A stretch of 64,000 nucleotides of DNA, from assembly GCA_027492485.1 (NCBI GenBank), contig JAPUER010000079.1, forward strand, positions 161,844 through 225,843, read 5' to 3'. Under the pieces are notes generated by a model, which worked only from the letters and a program-made list of their open reading frames with translations, was not told the origin of the DNA and ran no database searches. The stretch's first letter is position 1, and the number at the start of each line of letters is the position of its first letter. This stretch comes from Betaproteobacteria bacterium. GTDB taxonomy: Bacteria; Pseudomonadota; Gammaproteobacteria; Burkholderiales; Casimicrobiaceae. Positions 7,700 through 34,187 of this stretch are shown here, one piece after another. The translations under genes and the position numbers were made by a program.

Positions 7700-9751
7700 C
7701 TAAAACCGCCGCAACCAGTCAAAAAACTCCCGATACCAGAGCCGCGAATTCTGCGGCTTGAGGATCCAGTGATTTTCGTCCGGGTAGACGACGAGTCTTG
7801 ACGGGATGCCTTTGGCGCGCAGCGTGTTGTAGTACTCGAGGCCTTCGTAGTACGGCACGCGGTAGTCGAGCTCGCCGTGGATGACCAGCGTGGGCGTCTT
7901 GAAGTTTTTCGAGAACGTGTGCGGCGATTGCGACTGGTACTTCGTGAGGTCGTCCCACGGCCAGCAACCCAGTTCGTGGTTGAGCCATAGATAGCCGTCG
8001 TCGCCGAACTGGCTGACCCAGTTGTACACGCCTGCATGGCAGACGTAGGCCTTGTAGCGATCGCTGTGGCCGTTCATCCACGCCACCATGTAGCCGCCGT
8101 AGCTGCCGCCTGCGGCGTAGAGTTTGTTCTTGTCGACGATGCCTTCCTTGATCAGCGCGTCGGTGACGGCCTCGGTGTCGGCCAGTTCACGGTGGCCTAG
8201 ATCGCCGTCGATGCAGCCAAGGAAACGCTCGTCAAAACCCGACGAGCCGTGATAGTTCACGGCCGCGACCACATAACCTTGCGCCGCGAAGGCGTGCAGG
8301 TTCCAGCGGTAGTGCCAGGTGTCCATGTGGGCAGCGTGCGGGCCGCCGTGAATGCTGTGCAGCAGCGGGTACTTTTTCTTTTTGTCGTAGTTGGGTGGAT
8401 AGCAGACGAAGGCCTGCACTGCCTCGTTGTTCCAGCCTGCGAAGGCACGGCTTTGCCAATGGCCGAGCGGGATTTTTTCGAGGAACGCGTTGCTGCGATC
8501 GAGGCGAATTGTTTTCCCTTCGGCGGCGCCGGCGGGCGCGGAAAGTGTCGTTATGCCGACTGCCCCCACCCCGGCCCTCCCCCGCTGGGGGAGGGAGGCG
8601 AGGGCGTAGAGCCGTGCTGGATGATCGATGGACGCGTGGGTGTAGACCGTCGTCGTGCCGTCGTTCGACTGTGAGAACGCCATGACGTGCCCGCCTTTCA
8701 CGATCGCCGTCGGTTGCTCGGCGCCGAGCGGCAGATGCCACAGGTGTTGGGCGCCCGAATCCTCGGCACAGAACAGAATTGCGCTGTCGTCTGCGGTCCA
8801 CGCCGGATTGGCGCTGCCATAGGTGCCGACCGAGCGCGGCCATTTGGCGGCGAGCCGCTCGGCCTTGCCGCTCTTGCGGTCGACGAGCATCAGGCGCGTA
8901 TGTTTGCTGGGCGCGTCGTCCGGGGTGGCGAGCACGGCCAGGCGCGAGCCGTCGTGCGAGTACACCGGCGAGGCGAGCCACATCTTGCCAAGGTCAATGG
9001 TGCGAGTCTTGCGCGATTTGAGCGTGAGCAGTGTCAGTGTGCTCGGGTCGATCAGGCGCGTCACGTCCTTTTGCTGCACCCAGGCGACCTCGGCGCCATC
9101 GGAGGAAATGGCATAGTCGTTGCTGCCCGGATCGCCGAGCGGCAATGACCACGGCTTGCCCGCGAAGAGGTCCGTAGCAGTGCCGGACGCGATGTTGACT
9201 TCGAACAGATGGGGGCGCGCGCCATCGCAGATCCAGCTATCCCAGTAGCGGTAGTTGTCTGCTTCGATCACTTTCGCCTGGACTTTTGAATCCTTCTTTT
9301 CCTTCTTGCGCTTCGCCTGTTGTGCGTCAGTCTTGAGATCGGGCCACACCCAACTGATCGCGGCGATGCGCTTGCCGTCGGGGAACCACTTGATGCTGCC
9401 GACGCCGGTGGACAGCGTGGTCACGCGTCGCGCTTCGCCACCATCCGGTGCGATCACGTAAAGCTGCGGTTCCTCGTCACCGTCGCGCCTGGCACAGAAG
9501 GCGACCAGCTTGCCGTCCGGCGACCACTGCGGCGCCGTGTTCTTTTTGCCGGCGCTGGTGAGCTGCTTGCGCGTTTTGCCATCGGTCCCGTAAAGCCAGA
9601 GCTGCGTTGCGCTCTCGTTGGTTGCCATCGAATAGGTCGTCTGGTCGACGACCACCCATTTGCCGTCCGGCGAGATGCTCGGCGTGCCGATACGTTCGCA
9701 TTGCCAGAGGTGTTCGACAGTAAGGTGTTTGCCAGCCTGTTTCGCTTTCAT
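7700..9751 (-). CDS. S9 family peptidase (beta-propeller plus catalytic domain)
   Basis: PD40-like repeats (PQWSPDG), IHGGPH, GGSYGG, HGELDYRV and PDENHW catalytic triad motifs. Confidence 0.93.
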   Translation of the reverse strand: MKAKQAGKHLTVEHLWQCERIGTPSISPDGKWVVVDQTTYSMATNESATQLWLYGTDGKTRKQLTSAGKKNTAPQWSPDGKLVAFCARRDGDEEPQLYVIAPDGGEARRVTTLSTGVGSIKWFPDGKRIAAISWVWPDLKTDAQQAKRKKEKKDSKVQAKVIEADNYRYWDSWICDGARPHLFEVNIASGTATDLFAGKPWSLPLGDPGSNDYAISSDGAEVAWVQQKDVTRLIDPSTLTLLTLKSRKTRTIDLGKMWLASPVYSHDGSRLAVLATPDDAPSKHTRLMLVDRKSGKAERLAAKWPRSVGTYGSANPAWTADDSAILFCAEDSGAQHLWHLPLGAEQPTAIVKGGHVMAFSQSNDGTTTVYTHASIDHPARLYALASLPQRGRAGVGAVGITTLSAPAGAAEGKTIRLDRSNAFLEKIPLGHWQSRAFAGWNNEAVQAFVCYPPNYDKKKKYPLLHSIHGGPHAAHMDTWHYRWNLHAFAAQGYVVAAVNYHGSSGFDERFLGCIDGDLGHRELADTEAVTDALIKEGIVDKNKLYAAGGSYGGYMVAWMNGHSDRYKAYVCHAGVYNWVSQFGDDGYLWLNHELGCWPWDDLTKYQSQSPHTFSKNFKTPTLVIHGELDYRVPYYEGLEYYNTLRAKGIPSRLVVYPDENHWILKPQNSRLWYREFFDWLRRF
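8563..8597. repeat. Single REP-like palindrome inserted in frame in the S9 peptidase gene
   Basis: CCCCCACCCCGGCCCTCCCCCGCTGGGGGAGGGAG matches the intergenic REP at 34406-34453; translates as SLPQRGRAGVG. Confidence 0.75.
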
Positions 9752-9834
9752 CGCGGGTCCGTGGGGTGCGTTGGACCCGCAAGCGTAACCGCCCGACCGT
9801 TGTGCGGCGCGGTGTTGCGACGAAGTGGGCGCGC

Positions 9835-10107
9835 TTACTTGTTGTAGATGTTGCCGCGGTGTCCGATGCGTAGCACGCGAACAACGACGCGCTGGTCGAT
9901 GATTTCACAGACAAGACGCCAGTCGCCGATGCGGTACTTCCAGTATTTGCCGAGCGCATCGCCCGAGAGCCGTTCGCCGATATCCGACGGATGTTTGCTC
10001 ATTGCCACGCGCGTCTTGAGGAAGCCAACAATGCGTTCGCGAACGGGCCTGTCGAGTCTCTTTAGCTCCTTGAGCGCATCGGGATCGAACTCAATCTGCC
10101 AGACCAA
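9835..10107 (-). CDS. relE: Type II toxin, RelE/ParE superfamily
   Basis: WQIEF...ALKELKRLD...YWKYRIGDWRLVCEI...VLRIGHR; overlaps the antitoxin stop. Confidence 0.9.
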   Translation of the reverse strand: MVWQIEFDPDALKELKRLDRPVRERIVGFLKTRVAMSKHPSDIGERLSGDALGKYWKYRIGDWRLVCEIIDQRVVVRVLRIGHRGNIYNK

Positions 10108-10303
10108 GCTCGCGCTCCACCGCTGCTAGCGGGATGGCTTTGCGGTTCTTTCGACTGCGTGCTTCGGCGAGGTAAAAGTCTTCCAGATCATCGATGTATT
10201 CGAGGATCGCTTCGCGGGCGAGCGTGGTCTTCGTCCGTCCAGACTCCTGTGCGATGTGTGCAAGGCGAGTTTCTATTTCTTCAGGAAGGCGGATGGCGAG
10301 CAA
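10091..10303 (-). CDS. RHH antitoxin (RelB/CopG-like)
   Basis: MLAIRLPEEIETRL...GRTKT..AREAI..YIDDLED; 70 aa, directly upstream of the toxin. Confidence 0.85.
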   Translation of the reverse strand: MLAIRLPEEIETRLAHIAQESGRTKTTLAREAILEYIDDLEDFYLAEARSRKNRKAIPLAAVERELGLAD

Positions 10304-10346
10304 TTTCGTATCCTCTTTGTTGCGGCGCTATACGTGTATAGCGATT

Positions 10347-11612
10347 TTACATCACGCCTTCGAACATCTGCACATCGACAACCGATCCCGGTTCGACGTT
10401 TCCCGTTTCCGTGCTGAGCACGACGAAACAATTGGCCTGCACCATCGAGGAGAGGATGCCCGAACCCTGATCGCCGGTGGTGCGCACCTCGTAGCCGGCC
10501 GCGCCCATGGTCAGCACGCCGCGCTGGAACTCGGTGCGACCGGGCAGTTTTTTCACTTTATTGGTCAGCGTGGCCTTGCATGTGGGCGGCAGCGCGTAGT
10601 CGGTACGCCCTTGCAACGTGGCGAGCGCGGCGCGCACGAACTGGTAGAAGGTGACAGTCACCGCAACCGGGTTGCCCGGCAGGCCGAAGAAGTAAGCGCC
10701 GCCGACCTTGCCCACCGCCATCGGCCGTCCCGGCTTCATGGCGATCTTCCAGAACAGCACTTCGCCCATCTCGTTGAGCATTTGCTTGATGAAATCCGCT
10801 TCGCCGACGCTGACGCCGCCGCTGGTGATGATCACGTCGGCCTGTGCCGACGCGGTGGCAAAGGCGCTGCGAATGACCGCCGGATCGTCGACGAAGTTGC
10901 CGAGATCGATCGGCTGGCAGCCCGCGCGCTCGAGCATGCCGTAGATCGTGTAGCGGTTGCTGTCGTAAATTTCGCCCGGACCGAGCGCCGTGCCCACGGT
11001 CTTGAGCTCATCGCCGGTCGAGAAGAAGGCCACGCGCAGCTTGCGGTACACGCTGACCTCGGCAATACCCAGGCTCGCCAGCAAGCCGATCGCAGCCGGG
11101 CCGATCAATGTCCCTTTGGGCAGCGCGATGGCCCCTGTCTTCAGGTCTTCGCCGCGAAAACGGCGGTTCTGTCCTGACTTTAAATCTTTCGGGATGTGTA
11201 CGCCGGCGTCGTCGACCGCGACGCGCTCCTGCATCGCCACCGTGTCGCAATCGGCCGGCATCACGGCACCGGTAAAGATGCGCACACATTCGCCGCGGCC
11301 CACCGGGCCGAGCCAGGGTTTGCCGGCGTAGCTGGTGCCGACGCGCGTCATGGTCGTGGTGCCTTCGCCGGCGCCGACGTCGGCGTGCCGATAGGCCCAG
11401 CCATCCATCGCCGAATTGTCGTGTCCCGGTACGTCGATTGGCGAGATGATGTCCTGCGCAGCGACGCGTCCGAGCGCGGCGCGAATGTGCAGCCGCTCGG
11501 AAACGTCGATCGGGGCCAGAAACTTGCCGATGAACGCCCGCGCCTTGTCGACCGGCATCGAGTTGGGATCGTAGTCGTCGGCGCAGGAAAGTTCGCGGAT
11601 GGTAGCGGCCAT
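10347..11612 (-). CDS. moeA: Molybdopterin molybdotransferase
   Basis: DNSAMDGWA, RIFTGAVMP, STGDEL, TSGGVSVG, MKPGRP and GLPGNP motifs. Confidence 0.96.
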   Translation of the reverse strand: MAATIRELSCADDYDPNSMPVDKARAFIGKFLAPIDVSERLHIRAALGRVAAQDIISPIDVPGHDNSAMDGWAYRHADVGAGEGTTTMTRVGTSYAGKPWLGPVGRGECVRIFTGAVMPADCDTVAMQERVAVDDAGVHIPKDLKSGQNRRFRGEDLKTGAIALPKGTLIGPAAIGLLASLGIAEVSVYRKLRVAFFSTGDELKTVGTALGPGEIYDSNRYTIYGMLERAGCQPIDLGNFVDDPAVIRSAFATASAQADVIITSGGVSVGEADFIKQMLNEMGEVLFWKIAMKPGRPMAVGKVGGAYFFGLPGNPVAVTVTFYQFVRAALATLQGRTDYALPPTCKATLTNKVKKLPGRTEFQRGVLTMGAAGYEVRTTGDQGSGILSSMVQANCFVVLSTETGNVEPGSVVDVQMFEGVM

Positions 11613-25694: not shown

Positions 25695-27890
25695 ATGAAT
25701 CGCGTCAGATTTTCCCCCTCCGGCGTGGCGGGCATGGCCCGCCCGCTATCGCGGCACCTGCTTGCGCTATGCATGGCCGCCTGCCTTGCCGCCGTGCTGG
25801 CGGCGCCGGTGCTGCGGGCGCAGACACCGATTACCCTCAATTTTGTCGACGCCGATATCGACGTCGTGGCCAAGGCCGTCGGCGAGCTGACCGGCAAGAC
25901 CTTTGTTCTCGATCCCAAGGTCAAGGGCAAGATCAACATCCAGTCGGCCAGAGGCGTGGCACCGGGGCTTGCCTATCCGACGTTTCTGTCGGCATTGCGG
26001 ATGGCGGGCTTCGCCGCGGTAGAAGGCCCCGGTGGCGTGGTACGTGTGGTGCCGGAAGTGGACGCCAAAGCCTTGCCGACGCCGATAGGCATCGACGCCG
26101 CCAGCGCCGGCGGGGCCATTGCCACCAAAGTGATTCCGCTGGCCCACCAGAGCGCCAGTCAGGTGATCAATGCGTTGCGCCCGCTGGTGGCGGCGGCCAA
26201 TGCGTTGACGGTCTACCCGCCGGGCAACGCCATCATCATCACCGATTATGGCGACAACATCCGCCGGGTCGAGGCGGTCATCGCCCGGCTCGATGTTCCA
26301 AGCGTTGCGGCGCCCGAACTGGTGCCGCTGAATCACGCGCACGCGCTGGACGTTGCTGCCACGCTGACCCGCGCATTTGCCGATGCCAACGGCGCCACCG
26401 AGGCGCGCGACCGCCTGCTGATCACGGCCGATGCCAGAAGCAATGCCATCATCGTGCGCAGCGAGGACGCGGGCCGTCTGGCGCGCGTGAAATCGTTGAT
26501 TCAGGAGCTCGACCGCCCGACTGCGGCACCGGGCAACATCCGCATCGTCTATCTCAAGCATGCCGATGCGGCGCAGGTGGCGGCCACGCTGCGGCGAGTG
26601 CTGGGCGCCGACGGCGGCGGCAACGCCAATAGCTCCGGCAGCGCCACCTCGGGCAATGCCTCCGCGCTGTCGTCGCTGCTGCCGACTACCGGCGCCACCA
26701 CGGGCAGCACGCCGCAGAGCCCGCTGGCGGCGGCAACGGCGGCACTGACCGGCGCCGCGTCGACGCAGGCCAGCGGCACGCTGCCGCAAATGTCGACGAA
26801 TAACAATACGGCGTTCACTGCCGGCGGAGCGACGGTGTATCCCGATACCGCTATCAATGCGCTGGTGATCTCCGCGCCGACGCCGGTCTACAACAACCTG
26901 CGCACGGTCATCGAGCAGCTCGACGTGCGGCGCGCGCAGGTGTTCATCGAGGCGTTGATCGCCGAGGTGCAGGCCGATCGCGCGGCCGAGTTCGGCATCC
27001 AGTGGCAGGCGCTGGACGGCCTCAATCGCAGCGGCACGCAGGGATTCGGCGGCACCAACTTCGGCAGTACCAGCGGCAGCACGACGGCGAACATTCTCGG
27101 CGTCGCGGCCAACGCGGCGGCGGTGGCCCAGGGGCTTAACGTCGGTCTGGTACGCGGTGCGGTGACCATCGGCGGCAAGCAGATACTGAACCTGGGTTTG
27201 CTGGCGCGGGCGCTGCAAAGCGACGTGCAGGCAAACATCCTGTCGATGCCGACTCTGCTGGCGCTCGACAACGAGGAGGCGCGTTTCTCCGGCGGTCAGA
27301 CGGTGCCGGTGCTAACCGGGCAGTATGCGAACTCCACCGGAAGCAACAACTCGGTGACGCCGTTCGCCACCTTCGACCGCAAGGACGTGGGCCTGATTCT
27401 GCGCGTCAAGCCGCTGATCACCGAGGGCGGCGCCATCCGCCTGCAGCTCTACCAGGAGGTGTCCAGCGTGGCGCCGTCGACCGCCACTGCCGTCGATGCA
27501 GCCGGTCTGTCCACTTTCAACAAACGGGTGCTGGAGACCTCGGTGCTCGCCGACGACGGCCAGATCGTGGTGCTTGGCGGGCTGCTGCAGGAGAGCCTGT
27601 CGACCGATCAGGAAAAGGTGCCGGTGCTGGGTGATGCGCCGCTGCTGGGCAACCTGTTCCGCTATGACACGCGCAGTCGCAAGAAGACCAATCTGATGGT
27701 GTTCCTGCGACCGACCGTGCTGCGCAGCGCGGCACAGGCCAACGTGCTGAGCAACGAGCGCTATCGCGTGCTCGGGCTCGATCAACAGGCGGTCACCCCC
27801 GATGCGCGGCCGATGCTGCCGGAGATGAGCAACCCGGTGCTGCCGATGGGGCCGCCGGTGCCTGCCAGCCAGGCACCGCTGCGGCAATGA
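25695..27890 (+). CDS. gspD: Type II secretion secretin
   Basis: LNFVDADI, LDPKVKG, QVFIEALIAEV, RKDVGL.L.VKP, VPVLGD.PLLG.LFR and LMVFLRP motifs. Confidence 0.95.
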   Translation: MNRVRFSPSGVAGMARPLSRHLLALCMAACLAAVLAAPVLRAQTPITLNFVDADIDVVAKAVGELTGKTFVLDPKVKGKINIQSARGVAPGLAYPTFLSALRMAGFAAVEGPGGVVRVVPEVDAKALPTPIGIDAASAGGAIATKVIPLAHQSASQVINALRPLVAAANALTVYPPGNAIIITDYGDNIRRVEAVIARLDVPSVAAPELVPLNHAHALDVAATLTRAFADANGATEARDRLLITADARSNAIIVRSEDAGRLARVKSLIQELDRPTAAPGNIRIVYLKHADAAQVAATLRRVLGADGGGNANSSGSATSGNASALSSLLPTTGATTGSTPQSPLAAATAALTGAASTQASGTLPQMSTNNNTAFTAGGATVYPDTAINALVISAPTPVYNNLRTVIEQLDVRRAQVFIEALIAEVQADRAAEFGIQWQALDGLNRSGTQGFGGTNFGSTSGSTTANILGVAANAAAVAQGLNVGLVRGAVTIGGKQILNLGLLARALQSDVQANILSMPTLLALDNEEARFSGGQTVPVLTGQYANSTGSNNSVTPFATFDRKDVGLILRVKPLITEGGAIRLQLYQEVSSVAPSTATAVDAAGLSTFNKRVLETSVLADDGQIVVLGGLLQESLSTDQEKVPVLGDAPLLGNLFRYDTRSRKKTNLMVFLRPTVLRSAAQANVLSNERYRVLGLDQQAVTPDARPMLPEMSNPVLPMGPPVPASQAPLRQ

Positions 27891-27908
27891 GCGCTCGCGC
27901 CTCCGGCC

Positions 27909-29408
27909 ATGACTGAGACGCCGACGCTGGCTGCCCGGTTGCCCTTCGAACTGGCGCAGGAGTTCGGCGTCGTGCCGGTCGCCGACGAAGGCAGCGCGAT
28001 TGCGGTGGCGACAGCGCCGCACATGTCGGTGGCGTCGCTGGCGGCGGTCAGGCAGCGGCTTGGTCGACCGTTGCGGACACTGGCCGTGGATGCCGCCGAG
28101 TTCCGCTCGCTGCTGGCCGCGGCCTATTCGCGCGCTGCGCGCCCGTCGGCGACGGCGGCGAATCCCGCCGTGCCCCCCGCTGCCAACCAGAGTGGGCCGC
28201 ACCATGACGTCGATTTGCTGGCCAGCGCTCCGGCGGCGGACGACGCGCCGGCGGTTCGCATCGTCAGCGAGCTGTTGCGCGATGCGCTGGCGGCTGCCGC
28301 CTCCGACATTCACATCGATGCCACCGAACGCGGCGGGCGCGTCCGCTTTCGCGTCGACGGCGTGCTTGCCGACGTGCGCGAAACCGATGCGGCGACCCAC
28401 GCCGCGCTGGTCGCGCGTTGCAAGGTGATGGCCACGCTCGACATCGCCGAACGGCGGCTGCCGCAGGACGGCCGTTTGCAGGTCACCATCGCCGGCCATC
28501 GGGTCGACGTGCGGGTCGCGACTTTGCCGACGCAACACGGCGAACGGGTCGTTCTGCGCCTGCTCGACACCAGTGCCGCGCGGCTCGACCTTGCCGCGCT
28601 TGGCATGCAACCGCTGCTGCTGGACGCGCTGCGCAGCGCAGTGCGCGCGCCGCATGGACTGCTGCTGGTGACCGGCCCTACCGGTTCCGGCAAGACCACC
28701 ACGCTATACGCCGCCGTCAGCGAACTCGATCGCGAGCGGCTCAACGTGGTGAGCGTGGAAGACCCGGTCGAATACGCGCTGGACCGGGTGGCACAGACGC
28801 AGGTCAATCCGCGCATCGAGCTCAGTTTCGCGCGGGCACTCCGCTCCATCCTGCGCCACGATCCCGACGTCATCATCGTCGGCGAAATCCGCGACCGCGA
28901 GACGGCCGAAATTGCCATTCAGGCCAGCCTGACCGGCCATCTGGTGCTGGCCTCGCTGCACACCAATACCGCGGGCGCGGCCATTGCCCGCCTGACCGAC
29001 ATGGGGGTCGAGCCCTACCTGATCGCCTCCTCCCTGCGCGGCGTCCTCGCGCAGCGACTGGTGCGCCGACTGTGCACGGCTTGCCGTCGTGCGGCCGCGC
29101 CATCCGCCGACGAGGCGGCGCTGCTGGCGCTGCATGGCATCGGCGGTGCGGCCGGGCTGGCGCAACTATGGACGGCGGATGGATGTACGGCCTGCGGTGG
29201 CGGCGGCTATCGCGGCCGCATGGGGCTCTATCGCTGGCTGCCGGCGACTGGCGCAATTGCACATGCGATCCATGCGCGTGGGACCGATACCGAAATTGAA
29301 GCCCTCGCAGTCGCAGCAGGGTGGCCGACACTGGCTACCAGCGCAGCGCCGGCCCTGGAAAGCGGCAGCACATCGCTCGCCGAGGTGCTGCGGGTGGTGA
29401 CGCTGTGA
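27909..29408 (+). CDS. gspE: Type II secretion ATPase
   Basis: LDIAERRLPQDG, GPTGSGKTTT, VEDPVEY, DPDVIIVGEIRD, His box and CxxC pair. Confidence 0.92.
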   Translation: MTETPTLAARLPFELAQEFGVVPVADEGSAIAVATAPHMSVASLAAVRQRLGRPLRTLAVDAAEFRSLLAAAYSRAARPSATAANPAVPPAANQSGPHHDVDLLASAPAADDAPAVRIVSELLRDALAAAASDIHIDATERGGRVRFRVDGVLADVRETDAATHAALVARCKVMATLDIAERRLPQDGRLQVTIAGHRVDVRVATLPTQHGERVVLRLLDTSAARLDLAALGMQPLLLDALRSAVRAPHGLLLVTGPTGSGKTTTLYAAVSELDRERLNVVSVEDPVEYALDRVAQTQVNPRIELSFARALRSILRHDPDVIIVGEIRDRETAEIAIQASLTGHLVLASLHTNTAGAAIARLTDMGVEPYLIASSLRGVLAQRLVRRLCTACRRAAAPSADEAALLALHGIGGAAGLAQLWTADGCTACGGGGYRGRMGLYRWLPATGAIAHAIHARGTDTEIEALAVAAGWPTLATSAAPALESGSTSLAEVLRVVTL

Positions 29409-29451
29409 GCAGGGTCACGGTGCGCCATCCGGTGCTCCGGCGACGCTAGCC

Positions 29452-30645
29452 ATGCGCTTCGCATTCGAGGCGATCGACGCCAGCGGCCGCCGCGAGCGCG
29501 GCGAGATGAGCGCTGCCGACGAACGCGCGGCGCTGAAAGCGCTTGCCGCCCGCGGACTGACCGCTCTCAGCCTGGCGCCACGAACCGAAGTGCCGGCGAG
29601 TAGCGCCGCGCGCAGGATCGGCAGCGCGGACCGGGCCCTGGCGGTGCGTCAGCTTTCCGGTTTGATCGATGGCGGCGTGACGCTGCCTGCTGCGTTGCAA
29701 TCGGTCGCGCAGAGCAGCGCGCAGCCAACCATCGCAGCCGAGTTGCGCGCGGTGCATGCGGCGCTCGACGGCGGCGAGCCGCTCGCGTCGGCCTTCGCCC
29801 GCGCACCGAAATTGCTGCCGCTGGTCGAACGGCAGGTGGTCGTCGCCGGCGCCGAAGCGGGCGATCTGGCGCGGGTGCTGGCGCGACTGGCTGACTATCT
29901 GGAGGATCGCGACGCATTGCGCGGCAAGCTGGTCGGGGCAATGGTCTACCCCTCGGTGGTCGGCATCGTGGCGCTTTGCGTGATCGTCGCGCTGCTGGTG
30001 TTTGTCATGCCGCAAATCGTTGCCGCGTTCGCGCAGACCAAACAGCAATTGCCGTGGCTGACACGCAGCCTGTTGTCGGTCGCGAATGCCCTGCGCCAGT
30101 ACGGCGTCTGGCTGCTCGCGCTGCTGCTGGCCGTGGTGGTGCTGGCGCTCTGGTCGTTGCGTGGTCCGCTGCGGCAGCGCGGGCTTGCCCTGTTGCAGCG
30201 CCTGCCGCTGCTCGGACCGCTGGCGCAGAGCGCCGACGAAGTCCGCGTGCTGACCACGCTGGCGATGCTGGTGGAGAGTGCCGTGCCGCTGCCGCGTGCA
30301 ATGATTGCGGCGGCGACGACGGCGCGCTTTGCAGCCAACGGCAAACGGCTCGACGCGGCGCGGACCCTGATCGAACGCGGCAGCGCCGTGACCGTGGCGT
30401 TTACCGAGGCGCAGGCGCTCGACGGCATGTCGCTGGAGCTGTTGCGGCACGGCGAAGCGGTGGGTGGCGTGGCCGCCGCCTTTGCCAAGGCCGCGCAGCT
30501 GAAGCGGCAGGCGCTGGAACGCCGTCTGCAATGGTTCGCCACGCTCGTTGAGCCGGTGATGATCCTGCTGCTCGGCGGCGTGGTGCTGTTGCTGGTGCTG
30601 GCGGTAATGCTGCCGATCGTCACGCTCAACTCGGCCGTGCGCTAG
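29452..30645 (+). CDS. gspF: Type II secretion inner-membrane platform protein
   Basis: GspF/PilC fold: AMVYP, FVMPQI, LPWLTR.L and VEPVMIL. Confidence 0.9.
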   Translation: MRFAFEAIDASGRRERGEMSAADERAALKALAARGLTALSLAPRTEVPASSAARRIGSADRALAVRQLSGLIDGGVTLPAALQSVAQSSAQPTIAAELRAVHAALDGGEPLASAFARAPKLLPLVERQVVVAGAEAGDLARVLARLADYLEDRDALRGKLVGAMVYPSVVGIVALCVIVALLVFVMPQIVAAFAQTKQQLPWLTRSLLSVANALRQYGVWLLALLLAVVVLALWSLRGPLRQRGLALLQRLPLLGPLAQSADEVRVLTTLAMLVESAVPLPRAMIAAATTARFAANGKRLDAARTLIERGSAVTVAFTEAQALDGMSLELLRHGEAVGGVAAAFAKAAQLKRQALERRLQWFATLVEPVMILLLGGVVLLLVLAVMLPIVTLNSAVR

Positions 30646-30668
30646 GAGACCAGCCTAACGCCCGCCCG

Positions 30669-31715
30669 TCACTCCAGCCGTTGTTCGTCGCGGTAGAAAC
30701 GGTAGAGCAGCTTATCGTTCCTGAACGGATACTCGTCAAGCACGTGGTGCACGAGTGACGCATCGAGCAGGCGCTGGCCGGCACTCAGCGCCTGGTTGAG
30801 CGTGTAGTTCTGCACCAGCATCCAGTCGACCGCTTCGCTGCCGACGAAACAATTGGCGTAGGTGGTGCCACGGGACGAGCGGTCGGCAACGTTGAAACCC
30901 GCCTCGCTGCGCACCAGCGAATAGAAATGGTCAAGCGTCCAGCGCGGCGGCAACTGCGCGACGCGGAAGTAATGGTTGCCGTAGTCGAAAATCTGTTCGC
31001 GGGCAACGTGATAGATCAGCTCGGCCGCCTGCAACGCCTGGCCGATGGCGATCGCCTTGTCGCGACTGACGCGCAGTGCGCGTTCGAGCCAGACGACGCC
31101 TTCGCTGGCGACGAAACATTCGGGCAAAACGCGCAGCAGGTAGCTGCGGTCGGCGATGTTGACGCCGCCGGAACGATGCATGCGAAAGGCGAGGGCGGCG
31201 AGGTGGATGCCGTCGGATTCCGCCGCCGCGATGGCGCGCGCCCGAGCGCCACCAGTCGTCGTTTGCGCCGCTGCCCGGATGTAGGGGCCGATGCGGCGCA
31301 TCGCCCCCTCCACCGTCTCGCGATCGCCGACCAACTCCTCCAGCAGCCGCTCGCCGGTGAGGTTCCAGCGCCACGGGTTGATCTGCGGCACGGCGTAGTC
31401 GGCACCGGCTTCATGCGCCCAGTCGACGATGACCTCGTCCGCCCAGTGCGTGGCGGAGGCGATCACCCCGATTTTGGCCTCCGGCAGCGTCTGCCGCACG
31501 CGCGTGCAGGCATTGGCTAACCGAATGCCGCGGGCCGCCAGCGCCGCCAGATCGAGCACCACCGCGACCGGCAGGCCGTTGCCGCCCTTGTTGAGTTTGC
31601 GCTGCAGATCGGCCGCATCGTCGAAGGCATCGAGCACACCCTTCAACGCATCGGCGCTGGCACGCATCAGCGCGAGCGTGACCGGATCGTTGCAAAGGAG
31701 GAGGATCTTGAGCAT
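30669..31715 (-). CDS. Receiver-like domain plus two tandem DEP domains
   Basis: N-terminal KILLLCND/VVLDL/AGADY; two repeats of V..DR....Y..CFV.SE.V.W...G..L....I.HV...F....Y.F (aa about 172-252 and 262-342). Confidence 0.78.
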   Translation of the reverse strand: MLKILLLCNDPVTLALMRASADALKGVLDAFDDAADLQRKLNKGGNGLPVAVVLDLAALAARGIRLANACTRVRQTLPEAKIGVIASATHWADEVIVDWAHEAGADYAVPQINPWRWNLTGERLLEELVGDRETVEGAMRRIGPYIRAAAQTTTGGARARAIAAAESDGIHLAALAFRMHRSGGVNIADRSYLLRVLPECFVASEGVVWLERALRVSRDKAIAIGQALQAAELIYHVAREQIFDYGNHYFRVAQLPPRWTLDHFYSLVRSEAGFNVADRSSRGTTYANCFVGSEAVDWMLVQNYTLNQALSAGQRLLDASLVHHVLDEYPFRNDKLLYRFYRDEQRLE

Positions 31716-31851
31716 CGCGTTTTCCGTTTGCCGGCGCCAAGGAGTGGTGTTGCGTGGGCTCCGGCGCGTCGCCAATGCGACGCCGTCCGCCACTCGTCCG
31801 GCGCTTCTGCGGTACAAATACTATTCGATTGCTTTCTGTATTGTCACGCCC

Positions 31852-32391
31852 ATGCTGCTGCGCAACGCCACCGACGGCGACCTGATCGCCATCCATTCGA
31901 TCTATGCGCACTGGGTGACGCACGGCACCGGCAGCTTCGAGCTGGAGCCGCCGGACATCGCGGAGATGGCGCGGCGGCGTGCCGACGTGCTGGCGCGCGG
32001 CTTGCCCTATCTGGTGGCGGAGGACGGCGGCCGCATTGTCGGCTATGCCTATGCCAACTGGTTCCGGCCACGACCCGCCTATCGCTTCACGGTTGAAAAC
32101 TCGGTGTACGTCGACAAAGGAGCGCATCGCGGCGGCGTCGCCCGGTTATTGCTGGCGGAACTGCTCAGCCGCTGCGAGGTTGCCGGCGCCCGGCAGATGA
32201 TTGCAGTGATCGGCGACTCGGCCAACACCGGTTCCATCGGGCTGCACGCGGCGATGGGCTTCGATCACATCGGCACGCTGCGCTCGACCGGCTGGAAGTT
32301 CGACCGCTGGCTGGATACCGTGTTCATGCAGCGCGCGCTGGGCCTGGGCAACGGCGCCTCGCCGCTGCCGCCGGAACAGGGGGCGGCGTGA
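31852..32391 (+). CDS. GNAT N-acetyltransferase (Pat/YncA-like)
   Basis: IYAHWV..GTGSFE, YRFTVENSVYV, SIGLH..MGF and KFDRWLD motifs. Confidence 0.92.
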   Translation: MLLRNATDGDLIAIHSIYAHWVTHGTGSFELEPPDIAEMARRRADVLARGLPYLVAEDGGRIVGYAYANWFRPRPAYRFTVENSVYVDKGAHRGGVARLLLAELLSRCEVAGARQMIAVIGDSANTGSIGLHAAMGFDHIGTLRSTGWKFDRWLDTVFMQRALGLGNGASPLPPEQGAA

Positions 32392-34187
32392 TCGCCGGTC
32401 GTCGGCCCGGTCGCGGTTGCAGGTTGACCGTAAACAGGATTGTTCCGGCGCGGCTGCTGGCGCTGGCGCTGCTCGCGTTTTGCAGCGCGCACGCCGGGCT
32501 CGCCGGTGCCCAGAACCAGGCACCGGAGGCCGCCACCGGCAGCACGGCGAAACAGGGTTTCAACTTCCAGCGCCAGGGCGTGGCCGCGGCCAATCCGCTC
32601 GCTGTCGAGGCCGGCTATGCCATGTTGCGGCGGGGGGGCAGCGCCATCGACGCGGCAATCGCCACGCAACTGGTGCTCGGCCTCGTCGAGCCGCAAAGCT
32701 CGGGGCTGGGCGGCGGCGCCTTCATCGTGATGCACGATGCCAAAGCGGGCCGCACGCGCAGCTACGACGGCCGCGAGACGGCGCCAGCGGCGGCGAAGCC
32801 GGACCGCTTCATCGGCAGCGACGGACTGCCGCTCAAGTTTCACGACGCCGTGGTCGGTGGCCGTGCGGTCGGCGTGCCGGGCACCGTGGCGCTGCTTGCC
32901 GAGACACACCGCAAGCATGGCCGTTTGCCGTGGCGGCAGTTGTTCGAGCCCGCCATCGCGCTCGCGGAGCAGGGTTTTCCGGTCAGTCCCCGGCTGCACA
33001 TGCAGTTGCGGGGCGAGCGCTTTCTCAAGCTCGACGCGGCGTCGCGGGCCTATTTTTACGGCCCCGACGGCGAACCCTGGCCGGTGGGCTACGCGCTGAA
33101 GAATCCGGACTACGCCGCGACGCTGCGCGCCATTCGCGACGGCGGCGCCAAAGCGTTCTACGAGGGCGAGATCGCCGCCGACATCGTGCGCGTCGCCCGC
33201 GCGCAGGCCAACGCCAGCGACCTGACGGAGGCCGACTTTGCCGCCTATCGGGTGTTCGAGCGCGATCCGGTCTGCGCGCCTTATCGCCGGCTGCGTGTTT
33301 GCGGCATGCCGCCGCCGTCCTCGGGCGGCATCGCGGTGGCGCAGATGCTGTCGTTTCTGGAGCGCTTCCCGCTCGCCGCCTGGGGGCCGAACGCCATCGA
33401 CAGCCTGCACGTGTTCGCCGAGGCCGGGCGTCTGGCCTTCGCCGACCGCAACCGCTATCTGGGCGACCCGGACTTCGTCGCCATTCCGCGCGGCATGCTC
33501 GACGCGGGCTACCTCAAATCGCGTGGCGCGCAGATCGATCCCGCGCGCAGCATGAAGCGCGCCGAAGCCGGCACCCCGCCGGGCAGCAAACTGGCGCTGG
33601 CGCCGGATGCGACGATCGAGGCGTCCGGCACCTCGCACATTTCGGTGGTCGACCGCTACGGCAACGCGGTGGCGATGACCACCACCATCGAAGACCAGTT
33701 CGGTGCCCGCGTCATGGTGCGCGGCTTTCTGCTCAACAATGAGCTGACCGATTTTTCCTTCCTGCCGCAGGAGGGCGGCCAGCCGGTGGCCAACCGCATC
33801 GAGCCGGGCAAGCGGCCGCGCTCGTCGATCGCGCCAACCATCGTCTACGACCGTCACGGCAAGCCGCTGATCGTGACCGGCTCGCCGGGCGGCAGCGCCA
33901 TCATCAACTACGTCGCCAAGAGCATCGTGGCGATGCTCGACTGGGGGATGACGCCGCAGCAGGCGGCCGATCTGCCGAATTTCGGCTCGCGCAACGGGCC
34001 AACGGAGATCGAACGCGGCACCGCGCTGGAGGCGCTGAAGCCGGCGCTGGAGGCACGCGGCCACACGGTCAGCGTGCTCGACTTCACCAGCGGACTGCAT
34101 ATCCTGCAGCGGGTCGACGGCAAGCGCGGCCGTCAATGGCGCGGCGGTGCCGATCCGCGCCGCGAAGGCATCGTGTTCGGCGACTGA
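32388..34187 (+). CDS. ggt: Gamma-glutamyltransferase
   Basis: VEPQSSGLGGG, DGRETAP, GTSHISVVD (catalytic Thr), LLNNELTDF, PGKRPRSS and GSPGG motifs. Confidence 0.96.
   Translation: MIAGRRPGRGCRLTVNRIVPARLLALALLAFCSAHAGLAGAQNQAPEAATGSTAKQGFNFQRQGVAAANPLAVEAGYAMLRRGGSAIDAAIATQLVLGLVEPQSSGLGGGAFIVMHDAKAGRTRSYDGRETAPAAAKPDRFIGSDGLPLKFHDAVVGGRAVGVPGTVALLAETHRKHGRLPWRQLFEPAIALAEQGFPVSPRLHMQLRGERFLKLDAASRAYFYGPDGEPWPVGYALKNPDYAATLRAIRDGGAKAFYEGEIAADIVRVARAQANASDLTEADFAAYRVFERDPVCAPYRRLRVCGMPPPSSGGIAVAQMLSFLERFPLAAWGPNAIDSLHVFAEAGRLAFADRNRYLGDPDFVAIPRGMLDAGYLKSRGAQIDPARSMKRAEAGTPPGSKLALAPDATIEASGTSHISVVDRYGNAVAMTTTIEDQFGARVMVRGFLLNNELTDFSFLPQEGGQPVANRIEPGKRPRSSIAPTIVYDRHGKPLIVTGSPGGSAIINYVAKSIVAMLDWGMTPQQAADLPNFGSRNGPTEIERGTALEALKPALEARGHTVSVLDFTSGLHILQRVDGKRGRQWRGGADPRREGIVFGD

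Follow-up and report, generated by a model that had tools for sequence, protein, structure and literature searches.

A gene coding for a receiver-like domain and two DEP domains

The stretch of DNA analysed here (hereafter the window) comprises 64,000 nucleotides of contig JAPUER010000079.1 from an uncultured Betaproteobacteria bacterium assigned to the Casimicrobiaceae (order Burkholderiales), and contains at positions 30669..31715 of the minus strand a single intact gene, referred to below as the DEP gene, whose 348-amino-acid product joins a receiver-like domain to two consecutive DEP domains. The open reading frame (ORF) and its translation place the ATG start codon at 31715 and the stop codon at 30669-30671, so that the coordinates proposed by the initial annotation, in which a model had read the letters of the DNA, correspond to exactly one coding sequence (CDS). 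We are highly confident of the division of the protein into three modules, a pseudo-receiver, a helical connector and a DEP pair, which are distributed along the gene as follows.

30669..31715, minus strand: DEP gene, whole CDS, with pseudo-receiver, helical connector, DEP1 and DEP2 (ORF, homologue clusters, AlphaFold)
31356..31715, minus strand: CheY-like (beta-alpha)5 pseudo-receiver as modelled, residues 1-120 (DSSP, Foldseek, column counts)
31206..31355, minus strand: alpha5 and helical connector, residues 121-170 (helices in the model, invariant columns)
30948..31205, minus strand: DEP domain 1, residues 171-256 (PF00610 at 30963-31166, 48.6 bits; DEP fold in the model)
30672..30947, minus strand: DEP domain 2, residues 257-348 (PF00610 at 30696-30896, 63.9 bits; aligns to the DEP domains of P-Rex2 and DEPTOR)

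Two DEP domains in tandem

The Pfam DEP family (PF00610) matched the whole protein in two stretches with an E value of 1e-30 and 105.9 bits, far over the 32.7-bit cut-off, which each domain also exceeded when scored singly in the genome scan. The two DEP signatures read by the initial annotation were thus borne out by this match, by the sequence motifs themselves (DR..CFVASEGVVW..GQAL..YHV..F..YFRV in DEP1 and DR..CFVGSEAVDW..GQRL..HHV..F..YRF in DEP2) and by the folds predicted for them. The closest solved proteins in a sequence search of the PDB were P-Rex2, DEPTOR and P-Rex1 (E ~1e-18), all of them tandem-DEP proteins, and both bacterial domains share 30-40% identity with human ones. An AlphaFold model of the full protein, built with 33 homologues, was confident throughout, with a predicted local distance difference test score (pLDDT) of 92, exceeding 90 in each DEP domain, and a predicted template modelling score (pTM) of 0.89. 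When this model was compared with the PDB using Foldseek, the tandem of DEPTOR (7dkl) was the top match (E 1.2e-11), and the DEP domains of Dvl2, P-Rex1 and Epac2 superposed at a root-mean-square deviation (rmsd) of 2.2-3.2 A with a probability of 1.00.

The likeness to the eukaryotic proteins has clear boundaries. DEPTOR and P-Rex1/P-Rex2 (7dkl, 7ped, 8tua, 9zq7) likewise carry two DEP domains in a row, and single DEP domains (7rx9, 6pcv, 8wma_C) superpose on the bacterial ones at 2.2-2.5 A; in contrast, the inter-domain arrangement differs from that of DEPTOR, with an rmsd of ~15 A across the DEP pair. Furthermore, the bacterial protein has no PDZ, DH/PH or other eukaryotic partner domain, and it is a receiver-like fold that precedes its DEP domains.

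No transmembrane segment was found in the protein, which is near neutral and whose Kyte-Doolittle maximum over 19 residues is 1.6. Across the family with the receiver-like plus two-DEP architecture, the median net charges of the two DEP domains are 0 and -1, DEP1 of the present protein having an isoelectric point of 9.0. The combination of no transmembrane segment and near-neutral DEP domains favours docking onto a protein over binding to DNA or a purely electrostatic attraction to lipids.

A degenerate receiver domain

In the model, the amino-terminal domain has the fold of a receiver. DSSP assigned five strands to it (residues 3-7, 27-31, 50-55, 81-86 and 107-110), forming five beta-alpha units, and a separate model of residues 1-165 reached a pLDDT of 88.5. 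The domain alone retrieved receiver domains in ~45 of the top 50 Foldseek matches in the PDB. The best of these were the atypical receivers of the CpaE/TadZ type (4dad, 4dn6; E ~1e-3, TM score 0.63-0.65), while CheY, Spo0F, ArcA and others aligned with TM scores of 0.7-0.77. Beyond the domain, the connector is formed by helices at residues 121-129, 132-152 and 157-167, in which G121, L124, R141, P144 and A149 are conserved. The Response_reg profile (PF00072) gave no match to the 348-amino-acid protein at E<=1, nor to any of 59 family representatives, clustered at 50% identity, at E<=0.01; the term receiver-like used by the initial annotation therefore holds for the fold and not for the sequence profile. 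A Pfam match to PIN_9 (E 0.0025, below cut-off) was rejected, as the fold searches yield receivers and not PIN domains.

Counting alignment columns over the 59 representatives revealed how far the phosphorylation pocket has decayed. The relevant motifs are ILLLCNDP (residues 4-11), VVLDL (52-56) and DYAVPQ (106-111). The phospho-acceptor at the end of beta3, which the initial annotation had read as kept in VVLDL, is indeed present as Asp55, this position being Asp in 50/59 and Glu in 6/59 representatives, and Gly or Glu in several closer orthologues. The degenerate acidic pocket and the missing lysine that it had also described agree with the counts. The acidic pair after beta1 is reduced to a single Asp10 (Asp in 25/59), Ser87 occupies the Thr/Ser position after beta4 (Ser in 17/59), and the beta5 lysine is replaced by Pro110/Gln111, position 110 being Pro in 32/59 and otherwise Ala, Gly, Ser or Cys, with Lys in none of the 59. 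By contrast with these positions, the best conserved residues of the domain (R18, L56, W99, A100, G104, A105, R116, W117 and G121) lie mainly in alpha4-beta5-alpha5, the customary interaction face of receivers.

Because the second acidic residue and the beta5 lysine are absent throughout the family, we regard the domain as a pseudo-receiver, that is, most likely a degenerate receiver of the CheY type that has lost phosphoryl acceptance. The amino-terminal domain of CpaE/TadZ (4dad, 4dn6), FrzS (2nt4, 2i6f) and the pseudo-receiver of CikA (5jyu) are its closest structural matches and share with it the CheY fold and an incomplete phosphorylation pocket, at only 15-20% identity. They differ in what the receiver is joined to, namely a MinD/ParA ATPase in TadZ, a coiled coil in FrzS and a kinase in CikA, as opposed to DEP domains here.

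The protein might instead be a true, if atypical, response regulator, with phosphorylation of Asp55 by an orphan histidine kinase altering the binding targets of the DEP domains. The prevalence of an acidic residue at position 55, the presence of Ser87 and a fold that matches phosphorylatable receivers with TM scores of up to 0.77 would suit such a mechanism, as would a paralogous lineage (L047/L049) whose gene immediately follows that of a MASE1-PAS histidine kinase. Nevertheless, we consider it improbable. The lysine is missing from every representative, including the kinase-adjacent paralogue, the single remaining Asp of the acidic pair and the Thr/Ser position are poorly conserved, the Response_reg profile fails in 59/59 sequences, the best structural matches are atypical receivers of the CpaE/TadZ type, and no kinase gene adjoins the DEP gene or its orthologues. 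The MASE1-PAS-HisKA-HATPase kinase of the paralogous lineage (L047 5218-7233, L049 5167-7209) was the only kinase-adjacent case seen.

Distribution of the family

A word-based search identified 98 clusters of full-length homologues, nearly all of 342-349 amino acids and unnamed, originating from metagenomes and from metagenome-assembled genomes (MAGs) of Burkholderiales. A profile search of 1.84 billion representative proteins yielded 209 clusters (50% identity) at E<=1e-30, and ~73 of the best 150 clusters displayed the same architecture (335-390 amino acids, profile match end to end). Relatives with names came from MAGs labelled Burkholderiales, Casimicrobium, Usitatibacter, Polaromonas and Piscinibacter. 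The receiver-like plus two-DEP arrangement is accordingly a recurrent betaproteobacterial family and not unique to this genome. Of the new signalling adaptor proposed by the initial annotation, the adaptor reading is thus reasonable and the newness is not upheld, and no new type of system comes to light here. While the architecture is recurrent within its group, we found no paper on it, and more generally no study of bacterial DEP proteins in a literature whose coverage was thin on subscription journals. NCBIfam holds no family for the 348-amino-acid protein, which matched no defence-system family of PADLOC at E<=0.01.

DEP domains are rare in bacteria. They were carried by 9 of the 61 genomes sampled from the GTDB family of the window, by 14 of 301 in a sample of the order Burkholderiales, and by 2 of 400 other genomes in a sample of the class; the genome under study has a single DEP gene, the one described here. 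Cyanobacterial proteins have only the DEP part in common with it. Other arrangements found in the representative library include P0098 (480 amino acids), in which two DEP domains come after an EAL phosphodiesterase domain, and proteins of up to 1290 amino acids in which 3 to 7 DEP repeats are the only Pfam domains (P0104, P0109, P0110 and P0113).

Association with DUF547 and a VTT/DedA-fused disulfide reductase

Within the 61 genomes of the family, DUF547 was present in all nine DEP-carrying genomes as opposed to 10 of the 52 others, and a full-length fusion of a VTT/DedA domain with a disulfide reductase in 9/9 as opposed to 8/52. The larger order sample repeated the pattern for DUF547, which was found in 12/12 genomes with a strong DEP match and in 74/289 of the rest. 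A loss was consistent with these counts: in G317, a genome from the genus of the window, DEP and DUF547 have both been lost, and the gspDEF-GNAT-GGT genes that flank the DEP gene in the window have been kept.

Operon membership points in the same direction. A 363-amino-acid paralogue from another genome of the family (G145) belongs to a four-gene operon with a VTT::pyridine-nucleotide-disulfide oxidoreductase, DUF547 and HD; in Piscinibacter and in a RIFCSP Burkholderiales MAG, the reductase and DUF547 genes flank the DEP gene on either side; and in G309 (locus L050) it is found on the other strand, ~5 kb from a reductase-DUF547-ATP-grasp set. In a maximum-likelihood tree, the operon-linked copies were spread over three distinct clades. 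The clade that holds the gene of the window has a sister group (support 98/95) that contains the operon-near copy of G309.

The genome under study has the corresponding genes on contig C16 (L125 6431-11184), coding for a VTT/DedA::reductase of 728 amino acids at 8998-11184 of the minus strand, a DUF547 protein of 291 amino acids at 8031-8906 of the same strand and an ATP-grasp protein of 549 amino acids, and this operon contains no DEP gene. The initial annotation had described bacterial DEP domains as being mostly cyanobacterial or linked to DUF547; the second part of this remark, which gave the analysis its most productive lead, is supported by the strict co-occurrence and fails as regards physical linkage, DUF547 being here on another contig. 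Operon-borne relatives (L022, L080 and L081) consist of the same three modules in 345-365 amino acids, with 28-38% identity, and the core of their operon is the one also kept in the genome under study; the gene of the window differs from them in belonging to a separate clade (support 100/99), which has relocated to a slot between gspF and a GNAT gene and has given up its linkage to the operon.

A comparable set of domains is known from plants and algae, where class IV glutaredoxins, themselves uncharacterised, fuse GRX, DEP and DUF547 in one protein (PMC13621322). Both cases bring together DEP, DUF547 and thiol-redox functions, by fusion in the glutaredoxins, and by co-occurrence and, in relatives, a common operon in the bacteria. 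The differences are equally evident: DEP is the sole Pfam domain of the 348-amino-acid protein, which has two DEP domains and no GRX, the bacterial genes are separate and on different contigs, and a VTT/DedA::flavin disulfide reductase stands in the place of GRX.

The gspF/GNAT neighbourhood

Next to the DEP gene lie three genes of type II secretion on one side and two enzyme genes on the other, together with a promoter candidate.

25695-27890, plus strand: gspD (Pfam Secretin)
27909-29408, plus strand: gspE (Pfam T2SSE)
29452-30645, plus strand: gspF (Pfam T2SSF)
31818..31847, minus strand: sigma-70-like promoter candidate of the DEP gene (GTGACA, spacer of 16-18 nt, TAGTAT; consensus scan)
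31852-32391, plus strand: GNAT acetyltransferase, divergent from the DEP gene (Pfam)
32388-34187, plus strand: gamma-glutamyltranspeptidase (GGT), divergent from the DEP gene (Pfam)

The gspF gene ends at 30645 and converges on the DEP gene across a 23-bp gap. All orthologues (39-88% identity) with enough flanking sequence, ~20 loci, are located between GNAT-GGT and gspF-gspE-gspD, and the copies in this slot form one clade in the tree (support 100/99). The gspDEF-GNAT-GGT genes (25695-34187 in the window; also L120, L132, L133, L134 and L002) form a conserved framework, and the slot that separates gspF from GNAT in it is variable in content: it holds the DEP gene, DEP plus a transglutaminase/DUF2126 gene, a gene for a phosphonate-type periplasmic binding protein, or nothing. 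Within the genus, four genomes illustrate this variation: the binding-protein gene takes the slot in G317, gspF directly adjoins GNAT in G344, and a 3.8-kb gap is found in G329, none of the three having a DEP gene, while in G349 gspF also adjoins GNAT and the orthologue (52% identity, nested in the clade) lies 44 kb away. Since the DEP gene comes and goes from the slot within a single genus, its adjacency to gspF carries little functional weight and probably reflects inherited synteny at a variable spot of the block. The convergence with gspF pointed out by the initial annotation is thus correct as to orientation (30645 versus 30669) and says little about function.

Several side observations concern these loci. 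In G349, the region L131 4785-10575 has the orthologue flanked by a circularly permuted ATP-grasp/Alpha-E pair on one side and by a gene for a BCS1-like AAA ATPase on the other, and amidoligase and transglutaminase genes recur beside members of the clade (G349; L002, L042 and L043). The genome under study has three genes of the T2SSF family (GspF/PilC type), at C51 43321-44301, C66 131150-132121 and, on C79, positions 29452-30645 of the window; relatives of the last with at least 55% identity were confined to genomes of the same genus in the GTDB family sample, the others being ~40% identical.

The neighbourhood invites the hypothesis that the protein is an accessory or regulator of type II secretion, for instance in positioning or gating GspE/GspF, by comparison with TadZ/CpaE and FimX, receiver-like regulators of pilus ATPases. 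Such a role could draw on the 23-bp distance from gspF, on the persistence of the arrangement in ~20 orthologous loci down to 39% identity, and on the best fold match of the amino-terminal domain, a CpaE/TadZ-type receiver of Burkholderia. This match is, however, no better than those to ordinary receivers (E 9e-4 versus 1-3e-3), and the convergent orientation implies that the DEP gene and gspF are not co-transcribed. The protein matches no Gsp family, and the two sets of genes are separable: gspDEF persists without DEP in G317, G344 and G329, and with the orthologue far away in G349; a 1120-amino-acid transglutaminase/DUF2126 gene separates DEP from gspF in L002, L042 and L043; and in the sister-clade genomes G302 and G309, which have DEP, the GspF is no more than 40-41% identical and is encoded at another location. 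A function in secretion is therefore slightly less probable still than the phosphorylated regulator considered above, and the VTT/DUF547 gene set is more likely to be the partner than the adjacent secretion genes.

On the opposite flank, the upstream region bears both on the extent of the gene and on a possible role in transcription. The promoter candidate lies ~100 nt upstream of the ATG and overlaps the start of the divergent GNAT gene, the consensus scan having returned 2 sites against 0.2 expected. A longer ORF of 382 amino acids, starting at a TTG and reaching 31817, was rejected: ATG is the start in all orthologues, whose N-termini at this position all read M-x-K/R-I-L-L-L, and the TTG coincides in part with the promoter-like -10 site. 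In an alignment of 13 orthologous loci, the -10-like block GTAT..G.A was the sole invariant stretch of the intergenic region. Many of the upstream intergenic regions of L026-L038 also have, between the -10-like box and the start codon, a block GCTGTAAG followed ~20 nt on by GCGAC/CCGAC; this pair might represent a promoter for an alternative sigma factor or else a leader element, and the first block, GCTGTAAG, is missing from positions 31716-31800 of the window. The terminator scan gave one site, inside the CDS and at chance level. An Rfam scan of 30400-32100 returned only a sub-threshold match to Corio-PBP (24.4 bits versus a gathering score of 63.5, E 0.08), situated on the opposite strand in the start of the GNAT gene (31854-31925, minus strand), which we read as most likely due to chance.

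It is in this context that the protein could be imagined as a local transcription factor, whose DEP domains, of a winged-helix-type fold, would bind the shared promoter and control the divergent GNAT-GGT genes. All orthologous loci have the divergent arrangement and share an intergenic region of 50-216 bp, which measures 136 bp in the window. We nonetheless judge this very improbable: GNAT-GGT is retained in G317, G344, G349 and G329, where no DEP gene adjoins it, basic residues are absent from the equivalents of helix 3 and the charge of the DEP domains is close to neutral, the intergenic alignment contains no conserved inverted or direct repeat operator beside the -10-like block, and DNA binding is not known for any DEP domain.

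Proposed role and implications

We propose that the protein acts as a soluble, non-enzymatic cytoplasmic adaptor for a membrane redox module formed by the VTT/DedA::disulfide reductase and DUF547, a reading to which, taken as a whole, we assign a probability of roughly 0.4. The pseudo-receiver, presumably not phosphorylated, would bind a partner or dimerise through its alpha4-beta5-alpha5 face, the connector would hold the two DEP domains in place, and these in turn would attach the whole adaptor to a membrane protein from the cytoplasmic side, as they do in eukaryotes. The likeliest docking target would be the product of the operon on contig C16, which codes for the VTT/DedA::pyridine-nucleotide-disulfide reductase, DUF547 and ATP-grasp, and in that case the 348-amino-acid protein would serve a membrane thiol-redox module as an accessory or regulatory subunit encoded apart from it.

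A number of observations weigh against this proposal. The DEP gene is here unlinked from its putative partner, on another contig, and VTT::reductase or DUF547 occurs within 8 kb at only ~5 of ~55 non-orthologous loci, the remaining contexts being mixed (histidine kinase, IlvD, CoxG, DsbH-like thioredoxin, MscS, OYE, WYL regulator). Few independent lineages stand behind the co-occurrence, three genera in the family and five families in the order, and it could be due to shared ecology or genome size. The dependence is moreover one-way, with DUF547 and VTT-reductase found without DEP in many genomes, and a single-DEP protein of different architecture occurs in a genome (G355) without DUF547. Finally, the retention of Asp55 in most of the family, or of Glu in its place, is unexpected in a fully dead receiver.

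The same mixture of contexts would suit an alternative in which the protein is an adaptor with another partner, its DEP domains binding an anionic lipid or a different membrane protein, and the co-occurrence with DUF547 is an ecological coincidence. Eukaryotic DEP domains bind several targets unrelated to one another (lipids, tails of G-protein-coupled receptors (GPCRs), mTOR), and the isoelectric point of DEP1 would be compatible with a lipid. Nevertheless, the strict nestedness of DEP within genomes having DUF547 or VTT-reductase (9/9, 9/9 and 12/12) and the operon membership recurring in three clades speak against this alternative, and a family-wide DEP net charge of ~0 offers little for electrostatic attraction. 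We regard it as unlikely, though less so than the other alternatives discussed above.

Returning to the adaptor of the redox module, a broader version can be formulated, in which proteins of this family would be the dedicated cytoplasmic subunit of a VTT/DedA::reductase-DUF547 machine ancestral to the GRX-DEP-DUF547 proteins of plants, and docking on a membrane complex for redox or lipid handling would have been the ancestral job of DEP, before its reuse by eukaryotes in GPCR and mTOR signalling. This extension is speculative and we consider it rather unlikely.

DEP domains have been studied almost solely in animal and yeast signalling, in Dishevelled, RGS, DEPTOR, P-Rex, DEPDC5 and GPR155. 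The protein described here is bacterial, compact and modelled with confidence, and contains two of them. Co-occurrence, together with shared operons in relatives, connects it with two orphan families, DUF547, to which DEP is fused in plants, and the VTT/DedA-fused disulfide reductases. The finding may thereby offer a bacterial route to the ancestral ligand of DEP, to the function of DUF547 and to the role of reductase-fused DedA/VTT proteins, and its most valuable outcome would be a testable connection between DEP, DUF547 and these reductase-fused DedA/VTT proteins.

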